DNA from: Aliivibrio fischeri ES114
Lineage (GTDB): Bacteria; Pseudomonadota; Gammaproteobacteria; Enterobacterales; Vibrionaceae
Strand: one strand, 5' to 3'
DNA: 32,000 nt
Assembly (NCBI RefSeq): GCF_000011805.1
Contig: NC_006841.2
Of the stretch, positions 6,449 to 23,841 are shown in pieces. The first letter of the stretch is position 1. Every line of letters starts with the position of its first letter. Made by a program: the position numbers and the translations under genes. The notes beneath the pieces were generated by a model that saw nothing but the letters and a program-made list of their open reading frames with translations, did not search any database and was not told the DNA's origin.

Positions 6449-6838
6449 ATGAAAAGCAGTGATATTTTACTTGGAAAACTCAATACTGAGTTTAAAACTG
6501 TATCAGCCATGATAGAGATTTACTGTAAAAAACACCACAATGCTACCCACCTATGTGAAGAGTGCCAGCAATTGATGGACTATGCAGAAGTACGATTAGA
6601 TCGTTGCCCCTATGGCGAGAATAAACCAACCTGCAATACCTGCCCGATTCATTGTTATAAGCCCGAACCAAAAGAACAAATGCGTCTTGTTATGCGCTTT
6701 TCAGGCCCAAGAATGCTACTGCATCACCCCATACTGGCGATTCGTCATCTATTATCAGAAAAGAGAACCGTTGTAGATAAACCACAACCTAATGCTTCAA
6801 ACCGTCATATTAGACTTAAGAATGGAAATAAAAAATGA
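6449..6838 (+). CDS. YgbA-like 'nitrous oxide-stimulated promoter' family Cys-rich protein
   Basis: RLDRCPYGENKPTCNTCPIHCYKPEPKEQMRLVMRFSGPRMLLHHPILAIRHL matches the YgbA pattern as I recall it (RLDKC..GE.KP.C..CP.HCY.P....MR..GPRM..HP). Confidence 0.75.
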   Translation: MKSSDILLGKLNTEFKTVSAMIEIYCKKHHNATHLCEECQQLMDYAEVRLDRCPYGENKPTCNTCPIHCYKPEPKEQMRLVMRFSGPRMLLHHPILAIRHLLSEKRTVVDKPQPNASNRHIRLKNGNKK

Positions 6839-7716
6839 ACTGGACATTAGATCAACTGAACGCTTTTGTAACCTCAGTAAAATGTGGTTCTTTTTCTGCT
6901 GCAGCACGTCAAATGGGGAAGGCGCAATCACGAATTAGTACCGCAATTTCCAATTTAGAGACAGATCTTGGATTTGAACTGTTTGATCGAAGTGCTCGTT
7001 TACCTGTTTTAACTCAAGATGGCAAAGATATGTTTGTAGAAGCTCAAGCTATTTTAGAGCAATGCGAACGACTACAAGCTCGAGCAGATACTGTTGCAAC
7101 CGGTGAAGAAATCGCACTCACTGTTGCATTAGATGAAGCAGTACCTATTGACGTATTTGAAGATTTCTTTCAAAAAATCTCGGCTAAATTCCCGCTATTA
7201 AAACTGACAATTATTAATGGCTCTCAGGCCGATATTGCACGATGGGTTGATGAAAAAAAAGCAGATCTTGGATTTTTATTTCGAGTTAATGTTCTGTCAG
7301 ATTCACTAGAATATTTATCCCTTGGCTTTTTTAATCAGGCATTAATTGTCTCGCCAGAACACCCTTTAGCTCAATTTGAAAAGCCAACGTTGATCCAGCT
7401 AAATCAATATCGACAATTGGTTATTCGAGATCGTGTAGGCCACTCTCAAGAAAAACCAATTTCGGCCAATCACTGGTATATCGACAGCTATTATTATATT
7501 ACCGCTCTGGTTATTCGCAGTGTTGGTTGGGCATTAGTTCCTGAACACATATTAGAATCAGGCTGGTATAAAAACCAAACTCAAAAACTATCTACAGATC
7601 ATATCCTTGATACATTACAAATTGAATGGGGAGTAGTAAAACGTAGAGACAGCGGTATGGGCAATGTTATGGAGTGGATGATAGATGAAATCGAACACAC
7701 ATTTAAAAAACAATAA
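6835..7716 (+). CDS. LysR-family transcriptional regulator
   Basis: N-terminal wHTH (LNAFVTSVKCGSFSAAARQMGKAQSRISTAISNLETDLGFELFDR) plus a substrate-binding domain. ATGA overlap with the upstream gene at 6835-6838. Confidence 0.9.
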   Translation: MNWTLDQLNAFVTSVKCGSFSAAARQMGKAQSRISTAISNLETDLGFELFDRSARLPVLTQDGKDMFVEAQAILEQCERLQARADTVATGEEIALTVALDEAVPIDVFEDFFQKISAKFPLLKLTIINGSQADIARWVDEKKADLGFLFRVNVLSDSLEYLSLGFFNQALIVSPEHPLAQFEKPTLIQLNQYRQLVIRDRVGHSQEKPISANHWYIDSYYYITALVIRSVGWALVPEHILESGWYKNQTQKLSTDHILDTLQIEWGVVKRRDSGMGNVMEWMIDEIEHTFKKQ

Positions 7717-10716: not shown

Positions 10717-12450
10717 TTAAGCTGCTGCAGCTTCTTTCGCATCCGCTTTATTTTTCAAGAAAGCGTAAGTGAAGCCTGTTACTGCTGTACCCGCTGCAAT
10801 GGCTACCAAATACATAAATACTGGCGTGATTGCGTTTGGAATAAGTAGAACAAATAGACCACCGTGTGGAGCAAGTAGTTGAGCGCCAAACAACATAGAC
10901 AGACCACCAGTTAATGCACCACCCGCCATACAGCTTGGGATAACGCGCATTGGATCTTTCGCTGCAAATGGAATCGCACCTTCAGAGATAAAGCATAAAC
11001 CAAGCACAAATGATGCTTTACCTGCTTCACGCTCACCCGCTTCAAACTTATTCTTAGCAAGGAATGTCGCTAAACCCATACCTAGTGCAGGAACCATACC
11101 TGCTGCCATGATAGCCGCCATTGGACCGTATGTTTGTGAAGCTAGAAGACCTACACCAAATGTATATGCAGCTTTGTTTACTGGACCACCTAAGTCGAAA
11201 CACATCATACAACCAAGAATCACACCCAGCAATACAGCGTTAGTTGATCCCATGTTGTTTAGGAATTCTGTTAACGCTGACATGATGCCAGATACAGGAC
11301 CACCAACGATGTAAATCATCACCAGACCAGTAAATAAACTCGCCACAAATGGAATGATTAAGATTGGTTTTAGCGCTTCCATTGATTGAGGAAGAGATAC
11401 TTTATCCGCAATGAATTTAGCAGAGTAACCCGCAATGAAACCAGCAGCAATACCACCAAGGAAACCGGCACCTGTTGAGCTAGCCAACATACCGCCGATT
11501 AGACCCGGAGCTAAACCAGGACGGTCTGCAATCGAGAACGCGATAAAACCAGCAAGAACAGGGATCATTAACGCAAATGCAGCGCCACCACCAATATCCA
11601 TTAAGGTTGCAGCAATAGTACCAGGCTCTTTAAACGCTTCAATACCAAATACAAAAGATAATGCAATCAACAAACCACCCGCGATAACAACAGGAAGCAT
11701 GTGTGATACCCCTGTCATTAGGTGTTTGTACATGCCTTTTTTCTCTTCAGTTTGAGAAGATTGTGTATTACCAGACGCTTGGAAAACCGTCGCATCAGCG
11801 AAGGCTTTATTCATCTCTTGTTCTGTTTTCTTTAATGCTAAACCAGTGCTTGTTTTATATAGACGTTTACCATTAAAACGCTCAAGAGGAACTTCAATAT
11901 CAGCTGCGATAATCACCAGATCCGCCTCTGCGATTTCTTGATCCGTTAATTGGTTTTTCGCCCCCACAGAACCACGAGTTTCTACTTTAATAATGTGACC
12001 TTGGCGTTTACCTTCTTCTTCTAACGCTTCAGCAGCCATGAAGGTATGTGCAACACCCGTTGGACACGCTGTGATCGCTACAATTTTTTTAGCGCCCGTA
12101 TCGTCAGCAACCACTATTGATGTCACTTCAGAAGCGGTTAATTCTTTTGCGCTGTTCGCTGCGTTTTCTAACCACGCTTGCGTATCTGTCGTACATTCCG
12201 AAATAGTGCCTGTATATACTTTTTTACCCACAAAACGAGCGGTATCTACTTCTGTATTTGCAGCGATGATAATAGCATCTGCACCATCAATCACTTCTTG
12301 GCTTAATACATCAACAGGTAACACGCTTGATTGGCATTCAATCGACGCAGTCCAATTTAATTTTTTTGCAGCTTGTTCTAATAAACCCGCTGCAATAATG
12401 CTGTTTGCTACACCACTTGGGCATGCTGTTACGATAGCTATGTTTTTCAT
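10717..12450 (-). CDS. fruA: PTS fructose-specific EIIB'BC component
   Basis: Two IIB-like repeats (IVTACPSGVANS; AITACPTGVAHT) followed by a polytopic IIC domain. Sits in fruB-fruK-fruA order. Confidence 0.93.
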   Translation of the reverse strand: MKNIAIVTACPSGVANSIIAAGLLEQAAKKLNWTASIECQSSVLPVDVLSQEVIDGADAIIIAANTEVDTARFVGKKVYTGTISECTTDTQAWLENAANSAKELTASEVTSIVVADDTGAKKIVAITACPTGVAHTFMAAEALEEEGKRQGHIIKVETRGSVGAKNQLTDQEIAEADLVIIAADIEVPLERFNGKRLYKTSTGLALKKTEQEMNKAFADATVFQASGNTQSSQTEEKKGMYKHLMTGVSHMLPVVIAGGLLIALSFVFGIEAFKEPGTIAATLMDIGGGAAFALMIPVLAGFIAFSIADRPGLAPGLIGGMLASSTGAGFLGGIAAGFIAGYSAKFIADKVSLPQSMEALKPILIIPFVASLFTGLVMIYIVGGPVSGIMSALTEFLNNMGSTNAVLLGVILGCMMCFDLGGPVNKAAYTFGVGLLASQTYGPMAAIMAAGMVPALGMGLATFLAKNKFEAGEREAGKASFVLGLCFISEGAIPFAAKDPMRVIPSCMAGGALTGGLSMLFGAQLLAPHGGLFVLLIPNAITPVFMYLVAIAAGTAVTGFTYAFLKNKADAKEAAAA

Positions 12451-12480
12451 ATTCTGTCCTTAATCTATCACTAAGCTTTA

Positions 12481-13461
12481 TTACACGTTGCTAGAAATAG
12501 GGTTGTGTAGGGTTACTTGTTGTTGTAATTCTTGTACGTTTTTAATATCTGGAACACCAACGCCGACCTGCGATACAGCTAAAGCAGAAAGAGCGGTAGC
12601 AAAAGATAAGATTTGTGAACGATCCCAATCTTGCTGCATGTGGCCCCAGCAAAGACCAGCAACTAACGTATCACCTGCACCAACCGTGCTGACTACGTTC
12701 ATTTTAGGTGGTTGAGAATACATCCATTCAGCTTGCTCTTGATTATTTTGACCAAGCCACATCACCCCTTTTGAACCTAAAGATACGACGATATTTTCAA
12801 TGCCTTTTTCAGCAAGATCTTCAGCCGCTTGTTGACATGATTCTGGTGTATTTAATTCACGGCCTACAAATTCCGACAGCTCTTCATCATTTGGTTTAAT
12901 TAACCAAGGGTGAGCATCTAAACCTGCAGCTAGTGCAGCACGACTACTATCAAATAACACTTTCTTGCCCATTTGATGCAGTTTTTCAATCCACTCTGCG
13001 CACTGCTCTGGAGAAATACCTTTTGGTAAGCTACCCGCTAAAACAAAGAAGTCATGATCTTTTGCTAATTCAAATAGGCGAACTTCAAACTCAGCAATCG
13101 CCTGTTGTGATACCTCAACACCCGGGAAGTTAATGTCACTTACTCGCCCATCTGATTCAACTAACTTCACATTGATGCGAGTTGCACCATCAACACGAAT
13201 AAATTCATCTTTAGCCTTCATCTCTTCAAATAATTGACAGAAAAGCTCTTCATTATCACGGCCTAAAAACCCTGTAACCGTTACCTCTGCACCTAAGTCA
13301 GACAACACTTTTGCCACATTAACGCCTTTACCTGCGGCATGAAGTGAGCCTTTACTTATTAAACTCACAGAACCAACTGATAACGCATCTAAACTACCGG
13401 TTAAATCTAAAGCAGGGTTCAGGGTGATAGTTACGACTTTGCTTTTTAAATGAGTACTCAT
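12481..13461 (-). CDS. fruK: 1-phosphofructokinase
   Basis: PfkB family (TITLNPALD, GKGVNVA, C-terminal TVGAGDTLVAG). I prefer the ATG at 13461 over the TTG at 13464 used in the ORF track. Confidence 0.93.
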   Translation of the reverse strand: MSTHLKSKVVTITLNPALDLTGSLDALSVGSVSLISKGSLHAAGKGVNVAKVLSDLGAEVTVTGFLGRDNEELFCQLFEEMKAKDEFIRVDGATRINVKLVESDGRVSDINFPGVEVSQQAIAEFEVRLFELAKDHDFFVLAGSLPKGISPEQCAEWIEKLHQMGKKVLFDSSRAALAAGLDAHPWLIKPNDEELSEFVGRELNTPESCQQAAEDLAEKGIENIVVSLGSKGVMWLGQNNQEQAEWMYSQPPKMNVVSTVGAGDTLVAGLCWGHMQQDWDRSQILSFATALSALAVSQVGVGVPDIKNVQELQQQVTLHNPISSNV

Positions 13462-15864: not shown

Positions 15865-15908
15865 TCGAAAAATTGGCTGTTGCGGCAGTCAATGTATATT
15901 CTAATTCT

Positions 15909-16547
15909 TTACCAAATACCAACGGGTACACCGTGCTCATCAATATAAGCTTGCGCTTCTTCGCTTAACTCTGGATAAACAAAATCATCAGCAACTTTAT
16001 ACTCTGCGGCTTGTACTTTGAATTGAAGTTCATTATCAAAACATCGATTATTTAAAAAAACAGAAATCATTCCATCAGGAGCTAAACCTAATAAAATATT
16101 ATTCTTATACGGTCTAAGTTTGTTACTTTTACCACACCGTATATCATGATATTCTCGCATTTTATTTCGCATATCGTCGGAAATCCTAATTGCTTTATCG
16201 TAAGTGACGTTGTTCGCCAATGAATGCCAACGAATATAAACTAATCCTGGTAACTCAGAACTTTGAATAACATAACCTGAATGATATCTTTCTCTTCCCT
16301 CCCAAGAGTTTGGATTCTTAGAAAACTTAGTATACTTTGTAACCATCCCTCTCCAGCCCCCTTGTTTTGTTTCACTTGTTATCAATAATATATCAATGTA
16401 TGCGGAGTAATATTTAGGGGCGACCGTAGATACTGTCCATTCATTTAACTGTTTCGATTTAATTTGGCTATTTGTTGAACAAGCAGAAACGAATAAACAA
16501 AAAATAATGAAAAAAGACTTATGAATGTTGCTCACAATACTCACCAA
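15909..16547 (-). CDS. Putative T6SS immunity lipoprotein, copy 4 (intact, most divergent)
   Basis: Lipobox FVSAC. Shares the RWHSLAN..TYDKAIRISDD.R.KMREYHDIRCG core with copy 1. No ATG is available; the start is TTG 16547, GTG 16544 or GTG 16535. Confidence 0.7.
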   Translation of the reverse strand: MVSIVSNIHKSFFIIFCLFVSACSTNSQIKSKQLNEWTVSTVAPKYYSAYIDILLITSETKQGGWRGMVTKYTKFSKNPNSWEGRERYHSGYVIQSSELPGLVYIRWHSLANNVTYDKAIRISDDMRNKMREYHDIRCGKSNKLRPYKNNILLGLAPDGMISVFLNNRCFDNELQFKVQAAEYKVADDFVYPELSEEAQAYIDEHGVPVGIW

Positions 16548-17216
16548 ATACCAACGGGCACACCATGCTCATCAACATAAGATTGTGCTTCTTCGCTTAA
16601 CTCTGGGTAAACAAAATCATCAGCGACTTTATACTCTACTGCTTGTACTTTGAATTGAAGCTCATTATCAAAGCATCCACCATTAAGAAATACAGATATC
16701 ATTCCATCAGGAGCTAAACCTAATAAAATATTATCTTTATATGGGAGTAATAAATCATAATAGCCACAGCGTATATCGTGGTATTCACGCATTTTATTTC
16801 GTATATCTTCTGATACTTTAATCGTTTTATTATATGTTTTCTTGTTCGCTAATGAATGCCAACGAATATAAAAAGAAGCAGGTAATTCGTCACTATTAAT
16901 TGAATACCCTGAATGAAACCGCTCACCACCATCCCAACCTAGAAGGGCTTTCAGATTCCATATGTTGTGTGTTTTCCCTATCATTCCCCTTCATCCAACC
17001 TTTTTCTCCTCTCCACAATCCATAGCTATCCCAATTTAAGAATATATCCCCTACTTGACCTGGTGTGTAACTATTTCAGGGAGGAAGAATAGTCGCACAA
17101 TCGGTCCACTACATCTTAATTGTTTGAGATTTTAACTTTGAGGTTCCAGTTGAACCAGATGGAAACTAATTAAACCAAAAATAATGAGTAGAAATGTCTT
17201 ATGAATGTTGCTCACC
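16541..17216 (-). pseudogene. Immunity lipoprotein paralogue, copy 3 (5' half disrupted by many small insertions)
   Basis: The 3' ORF at 16541-16984 is intact and lacks a signal peptide. Upstream homology to copy 2 continues but out of frame: 259 nt here (16938-17196) against 214 nt in copy 2 (17627-17840). The leader VSNIHKTFLLIIF runs into stop codons. Confidence 0.75.
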
Positions 17217-17220
17217 ATTT

Positions 17221-17868
17221 TCACCAAATACCGACGGGCACACCATGCTCATCAACATAAGATTGTGCTTCTTCGCTTAACTCTGGGTAAACATAATCAT
17301 CAGCGACTTTATACTCTACTGCTTGTACTTTGAATTGAAGCTCATTATCAAAGCATCCACCATTAAGAAATACAGATATCATTCCATCAGGAGCTAAACC
17401 TAATAAAATATTCATCTTTATCATGGGCAGTAATAAATCCATAATAGCCACAGCGTATATCGTGGTCATTCACGCATTTTATTTCGTATATCTTCTGATA
17501 CTTTAATCGTTTTATTCATATGTTTTCTTGTTCGCTAATGGAATGCCAACGCAATATAAAAAGAAGCCAGGTAATTCGTCACTATTAATTGAATACCCTG
17601 AATGAAACCGCTCACCACCATCCCAACCTAGAGGGCTTTCAGATTCCATTGTGGTTTTTCCTATCATCCCCCTCCATCCACCTTGTTTCTTCTCTCCAAC
17701 AATCAATAAGATATCCCCTCTTACTGTGTAATATTTAGGAGAGATAGTCGAAATCGTCCACTCATCTAATTGTTGAGATTTAACTTGAGGTTCAGTTGAA
17801 CAAGAGGAAACTAATAAACAAAAAATAATGAGTAGAAATGTTTTAGCATTAATCATGATTATTACCAA
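17221..17868 (-). pseudogene. Immunity lipoprotein paralogue, copy 2 (nine +1 insertions)
   Basis: Fragments 17512-17868 (signal peptide, lipobox LVSSC, likely ATG at 17856) and 17221-17469 are in the same frame. Between them are nine single-base insertions relative to copy 3. Confidence 0.8.
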
Positions 17869-18479
17869 ATGCCTGTAGGCACGCCATGTTCATCAACATA
17901 AGCTTGTGCTTCTTCGCTTAACTCTGGGTAAACAAAATCATCAGCAACTTTATACTCTACGGCTTGTACTTTGAATTGAAGCTCATTATCAAAGCATCCA
18001 CCATTAAGAAATACAGATATCATTCCATCAGGAGCTAAACCTAATAAAATATTATCTTTATATGGGAGTAATAAATCATAATAGCCACAACGTATATCGT
18101 GATATTCACGCATTTTACGTCGAATATCATCAGAAATCCTAATTGCCTTATCATAAGTAACTTTATTCGCCAGTGAATGCCAACGAATATAGAGTAATCC
18201 TGGTAACTCGGAATCCTCTATAGTATATCCAGAGTGATAACGTTCAGCTCCACTCCAATTTAAAGGACCCAAGGATTCTGTAGTATAATTACTAACTAAA
18301 CCAGTCCATCCTCCACTTTTATTCTCTCCCGTAATAAGTAGGATATCCACAACTGCTGTATAATTTTTAGGTGATATAGTTGAAACAGTCCACTCATCTA
18401 ATTCTTGAGGTTCAGCTTGATATTCAGTGGAACAAGAGGAAACTAATAAACAAAAAATAACTAAAAGATATTTATTCAA
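17862..18479 (-). CDS. Putative cognate T6SS immunity lipoprotein, copy 1 (intact)
   Basis: MNKYLLVIFCLLVSSC has a lipobox. The TTG start overlaps the effector stop (TTGA at 18476-18479), with AGAAAGGA RBS about 8 nt upstream. Located immediately 3' of the lipase gene. Confidence 0.8.
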   Translation of the reverse strand: MNKYLLVIFCLLVSSCSTEYQAEPQELDEWTVSTISPKNYTAVVDILLITGENKSGGWTGLVSNYTTESLGPLNWSGAERYHSGYTIEDSELPGLLYIRWHSLANKVTYDKAIRISDDIRRKMREYHDIRCGYYDLLLPYKDNILLGLAPDGMISVFLNGGCFDNELQFKVQAVEYKVADDFVYPELSEEAQAYVDEHGVPTGIW

Positions 18480-19750
18480 AATGGAAATCCTTTCTGTTTT
18501 TTATGAGGCCAAATTTGTCTTTCACGCTCTCCGTATTGATTAATTTTAGGTTTCATAGTGTACATACCACTATCTAAAGCCCAGTGATCTGAACAATGGA
18601 CATAATGTTTTAAAACATAAGATGATAAAGACTCTGGTACTTCTTTTATAATAGATAAGCCTGAGATATTTTTTGAATGATTATAATTGTCTTCATAAAA
18701 TGAGTAGAGTTCTGCTAACCTTCCTCCAAAAATCAAAGTATTTGTTGAAAGTGGAACATTATTATCCATGGCTATCTTATGCATTAAATTAAATGAAAGA
18801 AATTGAAGATCTGGTGAAATATCCCTTGTCATTGATAATGTTGCTCTATATCGATAATGCTTATTGGTAAGTCTTGTTTTAACAACATTGTTTTGTGAAA
18901 AACAACTTGAAGAAACAACATAAGGTAGAAACTCTTGTTTCATCTCTTCTATTTTTTCTTCTGCTCTATTATTAAAGTTTCTAGTTGCATGCCAATCGTC
19001 CTCACTAATAGTACGTAGATATGGTTTCATAATTAATACGCTATCTTTTGGATCTTTGTAACCACCACCAATATCAGAATGAACACCAAGCAACGCTAAT
19101 TCTTGATGTTCAGGAGCAACCGAATTTAGCGCAAAATTATCTCTACACTCATGATGAGCGGTAAAATGCACCACTTTTTTTGCAATATCTTTAGGTAAAT
19201 ATAAGTTTATACCATGATTATTTTCATCTGTTGTATCGAGTAAATCTTTAATACAACCAATTGCTGCAACTGTATCGTATAACCCAATAAAATTAATACT
19301 TACTTTAGAAGAATCATTTAATTGTAATTTCTCATACACTAAGCCATCCACTTTTTTATGAATTTCATTAGCAAAATGCCTTGCTGTAGCTGCACCTCGA
19401 CTAAAACCAAAAATATCAAAGACCAACTTTATAAGGTGAATGTTAATACCTGATTTATTTAATTCTAAAAGAATATCATCAATAGCTTTCTTTGAAATCG
19501 CAATAACACCACGATCACCAACCCCTAAACCCATATCAGGAAAACGTTGATCTTCTTCAAGAGCTTTAGTGCCAACACCTTCCATATAAATCTTATGCAT
19601 CGTTTTGACATCTGATATATATGATTTAAATAAACGTCCTATATTTGTAATCGAATTATCGTAACTTCCTCGATTTTTTTCTGAAAATTCGAATAATTCT
19701 TCGCATATATTTTGGGTTTCATCAGAAATAAACGTTTCATCTTCGCACAT
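18476..19750 (-). CDS. C-terminal fragment of the effector (DUF2235 alpha/beta-hydrolase lipase domain, from the first ATG)
   Basis: GFSRG nucleophile elbow with Asp and His motifs. The conserved FFDGTGNN strand lies upstream of this ATG, so the fragment is N-terminally incomplete. Confidence 0.6.
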   Translation of the reverse strand: MCEDETFISDETQNICEELFEFSEKNRGSYDNSITNIGRLFKSYISDVKTMHKIYMEGVGTKALEEDQRFPDMGLGVGDRGVIAISKKAIDDILLELNKSGINIHLIKLVFDIFGFSRGAATARHFANEIHKKVDGLVYEKLQLNDSSKVSINFIGLYDTVAAIGCIKDLLDTTDENNHGINLYLPKDIAKKVVHFTAHHECRDNFALNSVAPEHQELALLGVHSDIGGGYKDPKDSVLIMKPYLRTISEDDWHATRNFNNRAEEKIEEMKQEFLPYVVSSSCFSQNNVVKTRLTNKHYRYRATLSMTRDISPDLQFLSFNLMHKIAMDNNVPLSTNTLIFGGRLAELYSFYEDNYNHSKNISGLSIIKEVPESLSSYVLKHYVHCSDHWALDSGMYTMKPKINQYGERERQIWPHKKQKGFPF

Positions 19751-19930
19751 AGCACCAAAATCAGCATTAAACGAGTTGTTTCCTGTTCCATCAAAGAAAA
19801 CACCAAAGCGAATTTCTTGCTTAGTAAAATCCAGAACTTCAATTACATAACTCTCGTTATGAACAAAAGTAACATTCCCTAGCTTCCCTTTATTATGCTC
19901 TTCAAGAAATTGATAATCCGGATTATTACT

Positions 19931-20278
19931 TCATAGATCTCCCAATGTTGCATGTAGGTACTTTTTACTTTGGTTTTGTTCTGGACCACCCAGAGCTTCT
20001 TTTGCAAACTCTGGAACTAGCGATGTTTCTGAATCTAATCGCTTATCTCGGTCTTCAACAACATCTATTAATGTCTGAGTATCTATAGTAACTTTTACAG
20101 GACCACTCGCAATATCTTCAATATGATTTATTCCAGAAGTCAAATTTACAGTCTGAATAGCTCCGGAAGCATCTTCGATAGTGATATCAAAACCTTCATA
20201 AGACTGATTATTTTCATCTCTAAAATCTAATTCAATCCAGTTTTTACTCTTTTCACAGGGAATACAACGATCACTCAT
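19931..20278 (-). CDS. N-terminal fragment of the effector (115 aa, uncharacterised module)
   Basis: ATG overlaps the DUF4123 gene stop (ATGA at 20275-20278). Ends at the in-frame TGA. Contains C-x2-C near the N-terminus. I recognise no family. Confidence 0.6.
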   Translation of the reverse strand: MSDRCIPCEKSKNWIELDFRDENNQSYEGFDITIEDASGAIQTVNLTSGINHIEDIASGPVKVTIDTQTLIDVVEDRDKRLDSETSLVPEFAKEALGGPEQNQSKKYLHATLGDL

Positions 20279-21075
20279 ATCTGGGTTCCTTGTTGTAATT
20301 CAGATCGAGTTACTAAGTTCTCTACCTGCTTAACGGTTTTTATTTGTGCGCTATCTAAATACCAGGCTTCATAGATGTCGTGACTTTGTTGTTTACTATC
20401 TTTAATTAGCATGTTCATTGAATATGCTTCTAATTCTTCATTTTCAAGACGATGCGCTCGCCCCTCTATAAGATGGTTAATTAACTGTGATTGTATATCT
20501 GAATTTTTTTCGTATATCTCTTTCATTAAAGAAGGAAGACGCTGCCACGCTAATCGCTCAGTAATCCATGCATGTCTTTCAACTGAATATGATGAATGGT
20601 GTTTTTCTATCTTCCACCACGGCTCTGATTTATAACTTACTTGAGAGGCGCTATTTTCGTAAGAACACAAAGAACCGACTGACGATATAATTTCTATACA
20701 CTCTGAACTACCAAGAAATAACGATAATTCTTTCTGGTTAAATGATACAAGCATGGCTTCTAAAACAACTCGGTCATAATAACGAAATAAAACTAATTCT
20801 CCATCAAGACCTGCAAACGTTAAACTTTTCCAATGCTGTATATGTGTTTCAATATCATCAGAAAAATAAATACGAAAGCCTGATGGTTTATTGGCAAAAT
20901 AAGCTAAAAACTCTTTAGGTGGATATGGCAATAACCATGGACCAATCTCTTTCTGTGCATCAAACTCAGTATCTAAATACAAAGGAAAAGCATTACCACC
21001 ACCATAATGATAAAAGCGCTCAATAACCTCTTTATCTTCAAGAGGATTAACTACCAAATAGCTCTGTTCATGCAT
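20275..21075 (-). CDS. DUF4123-family T6SS effector adaptor/chaperone (Tap/TEC-like)
   Basis: DUF4123 hallmarks: YLVVNPL..., FPLYLDT, IGPWLLPYP, LFRYYDRVVLEAML. ATG at 21075 with GGAGGGG RBS just after the vgrG TAA; the ORF track's start at 21114 overlaps vgrG. Confidence 0.85.
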   Translation of the reverse strand: MHEQSYLVVNPLEDKEVIERFYHYGGGNAFPLYLDTEFDAQKEIGPWLLPYPPKEFLAYFANKPSGFRIYFSDDIETHIQHWKSLTFAGLDGELVLFRYYDRVVLEAMLVSFNQKELSLFLGSSECIEIISSVGSLCSYENSASQVSYKSEPWWKIEKHHSSYSVERHAWITERLAWQRLPSLMKEIYEKNSDIQSQLINHLIEGRAHRLENEELEAYSMNMLIKDSKQQSHDIYEAWYLDSAQIKTVKQVENLVTRSELQQGTQI

Positions 21076-21079
21076 TCTA

Positions 21080-23116
21080 TTATTCCCCTCCGCAAGGTTT
21101 AACAGCAATGGCATTCAATTTTTGAGCGTTCTCTAATGCATTTTGAGGGGCTTTCATTGGTAAAGATCCCGCCTGCTCAACTTCTTTTCCCATTGGTAAT
21201 ACGGCTGTTTTTCCTGCATAACCACTGCCACTTCCCGCGCTTCCGCCAGAGTTTAGGTTAATTACAGAACCAATAAGATGAACGCCTGCTGGGTCAATTT
21301 TTACAACACTACCGCCGGCTTTAATGGTGATTTCAGTACCTGCTTCTAACACTATTTTTTGACCTGATTTTAAATGCAATTCAGAGCCGATCTCTTCTAG
21401 CTGTTTTTTGCCTACTTTTTTATGTAAAGAGCCATTAACTTGATGATGAGCGTCGCCTTTAATCGTTTCAAACTGACTTCCATTAACGGTGGTATGACGA
21501 TTGTTTTTTATCTCATTAAACTGATTGTTATGTACAATCTTATGTTCATCATTGAAGACTTCTATTGTGTGATCATGTTGGATCTGGCTATCCATGTCTT
21601 TTGCTGCATGAATATAAATTTGCTCTGCGTCTTTTTTATCTTCAAAGCGCAGTTCATTAAAGTTTTCACCACCTAATGAACTTGAGGTTTTAAAGGTACT
21701 GCGTGTTTTATGCTCAGGTAAGGTATAAGGTGGTTTATTGGCACCGTTATAAAGCGCTCCAGTAATAATGGGCTTATCTGGATCACCATGAATGAAACTG
21801 ACAATCACCTCGTGTCCTATCCTAGGTAAAATAAACTGCCCATATTGGTTTCCAGCCCAGCCCTGAGATGTTCGTAACCAACAACTTGTCTTTTCATTTC
21901 CTTGACCATTTCTATCCCAATGAAACTGTACTTTTACGCGACCATGCTCATCACAATATATCTCTTCGCTTTCAGGACCTGTTACGATAGCGGTATCAAC
22001 ATTATGGATCAGTGGCTTAGGTTGAGTAGTAAGCTTAAAAGGAACTATCCATGGCATACAACGAAAACTGGCATTATATTCAGAGCCACCATCAGCCAAT
22101 TCTTCAAGTACCTGTGGCTGACGCCCGCTATGAAACACTTGAGTTAGCAACCAAGTATCGTTCCACTCAGGGTTAGGATGTTCTTGAATAGGTTGGAAAT
22201 ACCCTGCGGTCAATTGTGCGCAGTCGCTCTCGCCGAAAAGTTCAATACTCCTAGCTCTTTGTTGCTCTAGTCGTAATGATGCTTGTTTTGTAGCTTTTTC
22301 TGATGAGGTTTGATTAATTGGGTATTGATAATGTTCTAATGCTAACTCAGAGGCACATTCACCTTGATCATCGTTCTGCATAATCCCTGCAGGAAGTCGT
22401 GTTGGCGTTTCAAAATTAAAGTCTCTTACTGATATTTTACCGACGCTTACTTGCTGCTTTTTCATTAAAGAAGTAATGGTGTTGCCATCTTTCGTCATTC
22501 CATTATCAGCAACAACGCACAAGGGAGGTAATTCGGTATATATTTCAGGTCCATCCGAAATAATCTGTTTAACTCCACTCTCTGTATGTTCAAAATAATA
22601 TACTAAGCCTTCTTCAGACAATAAGCGCTGAACAAACATGGCATCGGATTCACCGTATTGAACACAGTATTCTCTTGGTTCATGAGTATTAAACAGCTCA
22701 ATAGTAAAATGATTACTCAAGATCCCCGCTTGTTGATAAATCTCGGTAATGATGTCTGGTACGGTTTTATTTTGAAATATTTGATAATTGGTTCGATAAT
22801 TGAGAAGCGCAAAAATAGGAACCAGACTTAATCGGTAGGTACTGTTTCGAAAAGAAGTGCTGATTTGCTCTATCGATTCAATAATGCCATGCACATACCT
22901 TGGCGCAAAATCGGGATTATTGTCATGATGCAATGTCAAGCAAGCTGGCAATTGTAGCCATTGAGCTAAATTCAATTCAGGCTCTTCACAAATAAAAGTA
23001 ACATCAAACTGATAGTTTTCTCCCAACGTTTCTTGCCCTGAGAATGAATACACTTGAAGTGGAATATCTATCGTTGCAACGTTAATTTCAAATTGAGCTT
23101 GGTTTGCATCCTGCAT
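21080..23116 (-). CDS. vgrG: T6SS spike protein VgrG (short C-terminal tail, no enzymatic extension)
   Basis: gp27-like N-terminal domain, gp5-like OB segment (GRVKVQFHWDR...CWLRTSQGWAG..YG..ILPRIGHEVIVSF..GDPDKPIITGALYN), beta-helix repeats, Gly/Ser-rich tail. Confidence 0.93.
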   Translation of the reverse strand: MQDANQAQFEINVATIDIPLQVYSFSGQETLGENYQFDVTFICEEPELNLAQWLQLPACLTLHHDNNPDFAPRYVHGIIESIEQISTSFRNSTYRLSLVPIFALLNYRTNYQIFQNKTVPDIITEIYQQAGILSNHFTIELFNTHEPREYCVQYGESDAMFVQRLLSEEGLVYYFEHTESGVKQIISDGPEIYTELPPLCVVADNGMTKDGNTITSLMKKQQVSVGKISVRDFNFETPTRLPAGIMQNDDQGECASELALEHYQYPINQTSSEKATKQASLRLEQQRARSIELFGESDCAQLTAGYFQPIQEHPNPEWNDTWLLTQVFHSGRQPQVLEELADGGSEYNASFRCMPWIVPFKLTTQPKPLIHNVDTAIVTGPESEEIYCDEHGRVKVQFHWDRNGQGNEKTSCWLRTSQGWAGNQYGQFILPRIGHEVIVSFIHGDPDKPIITGALYNGANKPPYTLPEHKTRSTFKTSSSLGGENFNELRFEDKKDAEQIYIHAAKDMDSQIQHDHTIEVFNDEHKIVHNNQFNEIKNNRHTTVNGSQFETIKGDAHHQVNGSLHKKVGKKQLEEIGSELHLKSGQKIVLEAGTEITIKAGGSVVKIDPAGVHLIGSVINLNSGGSAGSGSGYAGKTAVLPMGKEVEQAGSLPMKAPQNALENAQKLNAIAVKPCGGE

Positions 23117-23258: not shown

Positions 23259-23777
23259 TTACGCTTTCATTGCTGTACGCCAGTCATCGTTACCTGATGT
23301 ACCTGCGACTTCGTGCGTCCAATCAATGGCACGATATGTCATAAATACATCTTCTAGGTGTGTGAAATGCGCTTGTGATGGGTCTTGACAGTTAGGCATT
23401 GACGCTGTGATATCAACGATAATCGCATCGTGTAGAACTGTTGTGAAATAGTGCTCTTGTGTACCTGTTGCAGAAGTACGGTACCACTTAATCTCAACTT
23501 TAGGCAGTTTCTCACCAGACGTTAATGCGTTATACATTAGTGGTGATGCCTTATCGAATACTTTTGTAATACGTACAGGCTTATGCACACGTTGACCAGT
23601 AGGCTGACCTGATTGAGGATCACGAGGTAATAAAACCTGATGTTCAAATCCTTGAACTAATACTTCGTCTTCATGACCTTCTTGGTAAATGTTACCTACT
23701 GAATCTTCAGTAAATGTACCTGCAGTAATTAGTCCCTGTTTTTCGCCTTCAATGCGCATATAAGCTGGAGTTGGCAT
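23259..23777 (-). CDS. hcp: T6SS tube protein Hcp
   Basis: 172 aa. MPTPAYMRIEGEKQGLITAG...GHEDE.LVQ.F.H....P.DPQSGQPTGQRVHKP... closely parallels Vibrio cholerae Hcp. AAGGAAG RBS. Confidence 0.95.
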   Translation of the reverse strand: MPTPAYMRIEGEKQGLITAGTFTEDSVGNIYQEGHEDEVLVQGFEHQVLLPRDPQSGQPTGQRVHKPVRITKVFDKASPLMYNALTSGEKLPKVEIKWYRTSATGTQEHYFTTVLHDAIIVDITASMPNCQDPSQAHFTHLEDVFMTYRAIDWTHEVAGTSGNDDWRTAMKA

Positions 23778-23825: not shown

Positions 23826-23841
23826 TGCCAAAGGTGTGCCA
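23826..23841 (-). promoter_or_regulatory. Sigma-54 (-24/-12) type promoter for hcp
   Basis: Minus strand reads TGGCAC-ACCTT-TGGCA against consensus TGGCAC-N5-TTGCW. GG and GC are correctly spaced. The -12 element is about 50 nt upstream of the hcp ATG. Confidence 0.6.

Follow-up and report, generated by a model that had tools for sequence, protein, structure and literature searches.

The DNA analyzed here is a stretch of 32,000 nucleotides from chromosome II (1,330,333 bp) of Aliivibrio fischeri ES114 (assembly GCF_000011805.1, contig NC_006841.2), called the window throughout, and our subject is a tandem array of lipoprotein genes that follows a lipase gene of a type VI secretion system (T6SS). 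The closest described system is the C-type module of Aux-1 in Vibrio cholerae and V. metoecus (Unterweger 2014; PMC5361080; PMC10395195), in which hcp, vgrG, a DUF4123 (tap) gene, a DUF2235 lipase gene and a DUF2931 gene follow one another. The 'C-type' immunity genes of Aux-1 belong to DUF2931, and their arrays have been described and a sequential displacement of effectors proposed (Kirchberger 2017, PMC5361080). In V. cholerae E1, the DUF2931 protein Tli1tox- binds and neutralizes the Aux-1-encoded Tle1Vc, and in N16961 the orphan second gene downstream of tseL also encodes a DUF2931 protein (PMC10395195). Two further systems, Tle1-Tli1 of enteroaggregative Escherichia coli (EAEC; Flaugnatti 2016) and Tle1AH-Tli1/Tli2AH of Aeromonas hydrophila (PMC7245790), likewise set a DUF2931 lipoprotein against a DUF2235 phospholipase that acts in the periplasm. 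According to a preprint, Tli1 of EAEC 042 is an outer-membrane lipoprotein with a DUF2931 domain. In A. hydrophila, two DUF2931 genes follow tle1AH, with none to three present per strain, and the two copies are needed together (PMC7245790).

The window carries an auxiliary T6SS cluster with the gene order of Aux-1 on its minus strand, namely hcp, vgrG, a DUF4123 adaptor gene, tle1 (the DUF2235 lipase gene) and the DUF2931 array (Table 1). The array and the lipase correspond to VF_A0945 to VF_A0951, and the array is convergent with fruR and the fruBKA operon. In Aliivibrio, this locus corresponds to the C-type Tle1-Tli1 module and orphan array of Vibrio Aux-1, and is of a kind already described; a previous reading of the window, made from its letters only (hereafter the sequence-only reading), had likened it to the orphan arrays of V. 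cholerae Aux-1, aptly in view of the DUF2931 arrays described there. The two systems share several DUF2931 copies 3' of the module, the persistence of earlier immunity genes after effector replacement, an effector remnant (in Aliivibrio seen in strain L020 and absent from the window) and recombination breakpoints inside the immunity gene. Unlike Aux-1, the present locus belongs to another genus, adjoins fruR-fruBKA and can comprise 6-7 units of a single family; the reassortment of paralogues within the gene can be documented segment by segment, and in ES114 the effector gene is a pseudogene. The orphan toxin-immunity arrays of Rhs and contact-dependent inhibition (CDI) systems are similar in that a conserved segment anchors recombination and displaced modules pile up downstream; however, in those systems toxin tips are shuffled together with immunity genes, whereas in Aliivibrio the immunity gene itself is repeated and the anchor would be its own 3' end. 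Our overall reading, which we regard as quite probable, is that the locus forms the effector-immunity end of a T6SS cluster and carries a recombining array of Tli1-type units, and that the copy count in the ES114 reference and the decay of its copies 2 and 3 are not biological.

We compared the units with profile libraries and found that, at a cut-off of 22.2 bits, Pfam DUF2931 (PF11153) matched two of the copies over positions 1-182 of the 182 in the profile, with E = 1.6e-47 for copy 1 and E = 2.7e-48 for copy 4, and that all 39 of 39 aligned homologues matched it too. The sequence-only reading, which could not name the family, is superseded in this respect; its statement that the intact copies carry a signal peptide and lipobox was borne out. 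A lipoprotein signal peptide and lipobox can be read directly in copies 1, 2 and 4, the lipobox being LVSSC in copies 1 and 2 and FVSAC in copy 4. The signal peptide that precedes the lipidated Cys is MNKYLLVIFCLLVSS in copy 1 and MINAKTFLLIIFCLLVSS in copy 2, and that of copy 4 ends in FFIIFCLFVSA. This Cys (Cys16) is conserved in at least 90% of the family alignment, and the residue that follows it in these three copies is Ser rather than Asp, which is compatible with outer-membrane sorting under the +2 rule of E. coli. From these features we infer that the units would be located in the outer membrane and face the periplasm. Copy 4 is 208-212 aa long, depending on the start chosen. The identity to distant DUF2931 proteins is about 25-30%.

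An AlphaFold2 model of copy 1 was confident (mean predicted local distance difference test score, pLDDT, 86) and consisted of two N-terminal strands, a long loop of lower confidence (residues ~52-92) and, starting at residue 93, a well-defined beta/alpha core. The model resembled no solved structure. A sequence search of the Protein Data Bank returned the designed beta-propellers Ika8/Ika4 for residues 110-160 of copy 1 (E = 6e-5), a weak and local match that was judged to be probably spurious. NCBIfam contained no family for the lipase, the adaptor or the units. Taken together with the neighboring Tle1-type lipase, the profile matches and signal peptides identify the units, as far as sequence can tell, as DUF2931 lipoproteins of the Tli1 immunity family.

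In the window, four units lie head to tail between 15909 and 18479, with start-to-start spacings of 632, 680 and 641 nt. Copies 1 and 4 are intact, and all of the lesions of copies 2 and 3 fall within one zone of about 625 nt (16943-17567). We examined this zone by comparison with an independent assembly of the same sequence (GCA_001029395.1, designated L005), in which the array is spanned inside one 760-kb contig. Over window positions 4887-26543 (~21.7 kb), the two assemblies differed only within this zone, in which we counted about 37 small insertions among about 50 changes, and by a 5-nt indel at two sites. The L005 array consists of three units, and the DNA of copy 4 is identical in the window, in L005 and in a further locus (L004). 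The sequence-only reading had proposed a four-copy array; four units are indeed present in the reference, but the comparison with L005 and the confinement of the lesions argue against four genuine copies.

The distribution of the differences is informative. The first 300 nt of copy 2 equal unit 2 of L005 exactly, and the 160 nt that follow, at 17412-17567, contain nine single-base insertions (eight G and one C on the coding strand) and no substitutions. Copy 3, by contrast, departs from that L005 unit in its first 290 nt, where it has about 28 insertion events (~48 nt) and 14 substitutions, and its remainder equals the unit save for the 5-nt indel. The N-terminal half of copy 3 is thus the half of copy 2 with noise added, contrary to the earlier statement that the N-terminal halves all differ. 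The two sets of lesions complement each other: joining the undamaged 5' part of copy 2 to the undamaged 3' part of copy 3 yields one perfect unit. Local, insertion-dominated noise between otherwise identical sequences is not what neutral decay would produce. The opening ~30 nt of copy 3 resemble the start of copy 4 and then change to the sequence of copy 2, and no natural counterpart of the resulting chimeric signal peptide was found among 45 homologues.

Such a pattern has a precedent in the same genome project. Mandel, Stabb & Ruby 2008 reported 14 tandem misassemblies of 318-1264 bp in the Sanger genome of ES114 (version 1.0), which they called 'artefactual expansions' and ascribed to 'imperfect contig ends misassembled in tandem' (PMC2330054). 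The extra ~680 bp in the array falls inside this size range and has low-quality flanks. Being inside a genuine tandem repeat, an error at this position would have been hidden from the comparison with MJ11. We accordingly regard the frameshifts in copies 2 and 3 as sequencing errors almost beyond doubt, and most likely the error-rich stretch of the 2005 Sanger reference represents two poor contig ends joined in tandem. Copy 3 is probably a ghost of copy 2 created by the assembly, which would leave copies 1, 2 and 4 as the true array.

The alternative that survives best is that all four units exist, copy 3 having arisen recently by duplication of copy 2, that only the indels are noise and that L005 has deleted or collapsed a unit. 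The exact order seen is what an unequal crossover between the starts of copies 4 and 2 would give, natural arrays contain two to seven units, a noisy zone of about one repeat period would also arise from poorly covered internal repeats, and short-read assemblies break at the array. However, the switch from copy 4 to copy 2 sequence in copy 3 takes place at microhomology only, ahead of an 18-nt stretch of identity, its chimeric signal peptide is not shared by any of the 45 homologues, the contig of L005 spans the array with three units, and misjoins of poor contig ends in tandem are documented for this very genome. We therefore consider this explanation unlikely and retain a three-unit array as the probable state of ES114. 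In five short-read loci similar to ES114 (L008-L010, L016 and L017), the contigs stop within 45 nt past the tle1 stop codon or inside the terminal units, indicating that the locus is systematically unassembled in public short-read data.

We further analyzed the relationship of the units to the lipase. The tle1 gene is a single frame of 600 codons, and PF09994, the DUF2235 catalytic domain, matched the 424-aa fragment that it yields in ES114 (E = 6.6e-17), the GxSxG motif being present as GFSRG. A DUF2931 unit stands directly after tle1 in every related A. fischeri locus in which the array is spanned, as well as in the four loci of other species examined, and the TTG start codon of copy 1 shares bases with the tle1 stop codon (TTGA). 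These observations agree with the earlier proposal that immunity lipoproteins lie directly 3' of the lipase, for which homologues have been validated. A periplasmic role of the Aliivibrio DUF2931 lipoproteins other than Tle1 immunity could be argued from V. cholerae, where an orphan paralogue ~80% identical to the true immunity protein gives no protection against Tle1Vc (PMC10395195); but the conserved position behind tle1 with overlapping codons, and the demonstration of the immunity function of the family in three independent experimental systems, make it highly improbable.

The ES114 frame of tle1 is broken by TGA at codon 116 (window 19931-19933, minus strand), where alignment to intact 600-aa orthologues showed TGG in all other strains compared; the frame is undamaged outside this codon. 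The two resulting fragments recur on multiple independent contigs (the 115-aa fragment on 85, the 424-aa fragment on 69), and the nonsense codon is accordingly genuine. It might be supposed that the four copies are likewise all real, lesions included, copies 2 and 3 having decayed into pseudogenes after the loss of the effector, since that effector is truly a pseudogene and frameshifted or truncated units also occur in L005, L020, P0040 and P0042, but this is scarcely tenable when about 50 changes, nearly all of them insertions and exactly complementary between the two copies, are crowded into 625 nt and the other ~21 kb match L005 save for one 5-nt indel at two sites. Among non-identical strain alleles, Tle1 proteins are 86-94% identical overall and 54-84% identical at residues ~150-300. 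This part of the catalytic domain (window ~19380-19830) is a candidate immunity-contact or lid region.

Next, we analyzed the mosaic structure of the units, beginning with the copies in the window. Copy 1 shares a perfect run of 128 nt with copy 3 and with cleaned copy 2 (nt 391-518 of copy 1, window 18089-17962), and 11-15 positions separate it from copies 2 and 3 over the final ~230 nt (12 for cleaned copy 2); near identity at the 3' end thus stands, with more differences than the 'about five' of the sequence-only reading. In the ~160 nt just upstream of the 128-nt run, copies 1 and 2 diverge by ~27%. In its middle part, as the same reading had stated, copy 1 resembles copy 4: at codons 86-115 it agrees with copy 4 at 20 of the 22 sites that discriminate, compared with 28 of 110 elsewhere. 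This shift was statistically supported by a scan of the MaxChi type (permutation P = 0.0005, Fisher P = 1e-8). Among the four copies, 35 of 40 informative sites back one split (copies 1 and 4 versus copies 2 and 3), and for this reason the window alone cannot show incongruence between trees. Because four copies are insufficient, we drew the evidence for recombination from such shifts in relative distance and from a population sample.

This sample consisted of 34 units (20 distinct) from eight arrays, with eight segments typed per unit; recombination statistics were computed on 17 clean units from eight strains. The segment types reassort freely and occur in all combinations. For example, the body of copy 1 is found as the second unit of L001 with 98% amino acid identity and another signal peptide, some units join an N-terminal half of the copy 4 type to a middle of the copy 2 type, and each of the 'patch' variants GYYDLLLPYKD, GKSNKLRPYKN and GFNNGLYPYKD is found with either type of middle. 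All four gametes were present at 42% of the informative site pairs, the minimum number of recombination events (Hudson-Kaplan Rm) was 46, and a statistic of the pairwise homoplasy index (PHI) type was 0.17-0.22, compared with 0.42 after permutation (none of 2000 permutations as low, P < 0.0005). The mosaic structure is therefore real and general, and recombination is pervasive, as had been proposed.

The variation is unevenly distributed along the unit. Nucleotide diversity is 0.2-0.36 in the N-terminal half and declines to 0.03-0.09 near the 3' end, in agreement with the earlier description of a variable N-terminal and a constant C-terminal part; synonymous diversity falls from 0.55 in the N-terminal segment to 0.24 in the C-terminal segment. 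The drop in synonymous diversity as well points to homogenization and not to constraint alone. Uneven constraint along the gene in the absence of recombination would suit the C-terminal part, where conservation across DUF2931 as a whole is highest (P150 and G152 are invariant) and the ratio of non-synonymous to synonymous polymorphism is lowest (pN/pS, 0.14), but it would hardly account for the synonymous sites, for a 128-nt run in copies 1 and 2 with no synonymous difference beside ~27% divergence, for four gametes at so many site pairs with neighboring sites far more compatible than shuffled ones, or for segment types in all combinations, and is barely credible. Diversifying selection on the N-terminal half was also considered, but pN/pS there is 0.39. 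We infer that specificity may reside in the variable half, a role that the sequence-only reading had assigned to it and for which the polymorphism gives no support.

Two further observations concern individual units. In L005 (11023-12914), a 5-nt duplication (TAAAG on the coding strand), which the window does not have, is present in units 1 and 2, both of which it frameshifts; the sites correspond to window positions 16734 and 18055, within the 128-nt tract of identity between copies 1 and 2. The two paralogues would thus share its presence or its absence, which looks like concerted evolution. Separately, L002, L003 and L006 carry at 12287-12610 a 5'-truncated DUF2931 unit (87-93 aa) that starts at RWHSLAN and is joined to the end of the unit before it, apparently through a short homology at the junction (CGTTGG.ATT).

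The size and composition of the array vary among strains and species. A. fischeri arrays contain 2, 3, 4, 6 or 7 units, that of A. logei six and that of A. sifiae about seven; a scan of species-representative genomes yielded other Aliivibrio species and no A. fischeri. The terminal unit beside fruR is nearly invariant. In support of the orphan-immunity reading, each Tle1 variant is paired with its own first-position unit, the variable region of Tle1 (residues 150-300) being correlated with the N-terminal and middle part of that unit (residues 19-131; Mantel r = 0.87, P = 0.002), and the copy 1 body in L001 stands behind a different Tle1 and a different first unit. In L020, the last unit directly follows a 138-nt remnant of the tle1 3' end (96% identity), a hallmark of the sequential-displacement model put forward for V. 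cholerae; no tle1 3' remnant precedes an orphan unit in the window. An insert of ~590 nt was also observed in or after the array, between the fifth and last units of L020 (~6630-7350) and in L001 (8628-9205). It encodes a hydrophobic-rich ORF of 108-116 aa with no Pfam match, and in L020 it is followed by the 138-nt tle1 remnant and then by the orphan unit.

By analogy with characterized members of the family, each unit would be exported, lipidated at the lipobox Cys and anchored facing the periplasm, where it would bind incoming Tle1 phospholipase and neutralize it. The first unit, which appears to be translationally coupled to tle1, is presumably the cognate immunity gene, and the downstream units may be retained or shuffled orphans that widen protection against the Tle1 variants of other strains. 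Given the premature stop codon of tle1, every copy in ES114 would be defensive only. Recombination between paralogues, whether by gene conversion, unequal crossover or exchange between strains, homogenizes the 3' third of the unit and reshuffles the signal-peptide, N-terminal, middle and 'patch' segments.

Several points weigh against this reading or parts of it. Binding, localization and protection by the A. fischeri units are taken from their homologues. pN/pS is below 1 in every segment, with no signal of diversifying selection, and the correlation between Tle1 and the first unit covers four haplotype groups only, with physical linkage as a confounder. L005 may itself have collapsed two identical units, and its TAAAG duplication means that the intactness of copy 1 in the real ES114 is not certain. 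The array lies outside the list of targets corrected by Mandel et al., and VF_A0946 to VF_A0948 were not among the loci that they resequenced (PMC2330054). According to a review, ES114 is a T6SS2-negative standard prey strain and is killed in vitro by T6SS2-positive strains; the array therefore gives no general protection. A further point concerns expression. Sigma-54 sites have been reported upstream of V. fischeri hcp genes, and the gene for the activator VasH is placed in the T6SS2 cluster, in both cases according to a review. A scan for the strict sigma-54 consensus found no site in the window, and a site with one mismatch, then read by eye upstream of hcp, is the sole recognizable promoter of the cluster and only a presumed one. 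With vasH in the T6SS2 cluster and ES114 described as T6SS2-negative, it is uncertain whether this strain expresses the array.

The features of the locus are listed in Table 1. The 279-aa start of the DUF4123 ORF creates a 35-nt overlap with the 3' end of vgrG (window 21080-21114), and a 266-aa version in other annotations begins after vgrG. An Rfam search of the window gave no match, and scans of the window for sigma-70 promoters and terminators gave counts no higher than chance.

Table 1. Features of the T6SS cluster and the DUF2931 array in the window
Feature	Position	Strand	Basis
hcp, first gene of the cluster	23259..23777	-	Pfam T6SS_HCP, E = 7.5e-35
vgrG spike gene	21080..23116	-	Pfam Phage_GPD, Gp5_trimer_C, Phage_base_V
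DUF4123 (Tap-1-type) adaptor gene	20275..21114	-	Pfam DUF4123, E = 2e-24
tle1 pseudogene (VF_A0951, 115-aa fragment; VF_A0950, 424-aa fragment)	18476..20278	-	Pfam T6SS_Tle1-like_cat
Copy 1, VF_A0949, intact, 205 aa	17862..18479	-	Pfam DUF2931
Copy 2, VF_A0948 (114-aa piece) and VF_A0947 (82-aa piece)	17221..17868	-	DUF2931 unit, read as frameshifted
Copy 3, VF_A0946 (147-aa 3' ORF)	16541..17227	-	Sequence comparison with copy 2 and L005
Copy 4, VF_A0945, intact, terminal unit	15909..16547	-	Pfam DUF2931
128-nt identical tract of copy 1 with copies 2 and 3 (putative gene-conversion tract)	17962..18089	-	Pairwise comparison
Codons 86-115 of copy 1, siding with copy 4 over copy 2	18135..18222	-	MaxChi-type scan
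Error-rich zone of the ES114 reference	16943..17567	no strand	Comparison with L005
Hairpin between convergent fruR and copy 4, candidate bidirectional terminator	15872..15893	+	Pattern scan only
Sigma-54-like promoter, TGGCAC-N5-TGGCA	23826..23841	-	~50 nt upstream of hcp, read by eye, one mismatch

The analysis has two useful outcomes, the intragenic reassortment of the units and a probable uncorrected assembly error in ES114. It gives a function and a family (Tli1/DUF2931 with a Tle1 pseudogene partner) for seven ORFs that carry the labels 'hypothetical protein' or 'lipoprotein, putative' in the model strain of squid symbiosis. The three ORFs VF_A0946 to VF_A0948 would be spurious products of the probable error, which can also lead read mapping, transposon sequencing (Tn-seq) and pseudogene counts astray. 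The natural chimeric immunity proteins form a tractable set for mapping the specificity of Tle1-Tli1 pairs.

Variable, recombining T6SS immunity arrays in A. fischeri bear on strain incompatibility in the light organ, and ES114, the standard 'target' strain, has immunity genes without a working Tle1. We tentatively raise the further idea, which we consider less likely than not, that the Tli1 arrays of Aliivibrio are a recombination-driven generator of repertoire, in which the 3' third serves as a homology anchor and new specificities arise against a diversifying Tle1. If this is true, the swapping of segments between paralogues and strains would amount to cassette shuffling of an antitoxin, and ES114 would show that the weapon can be discarded while the evolving shield stays.

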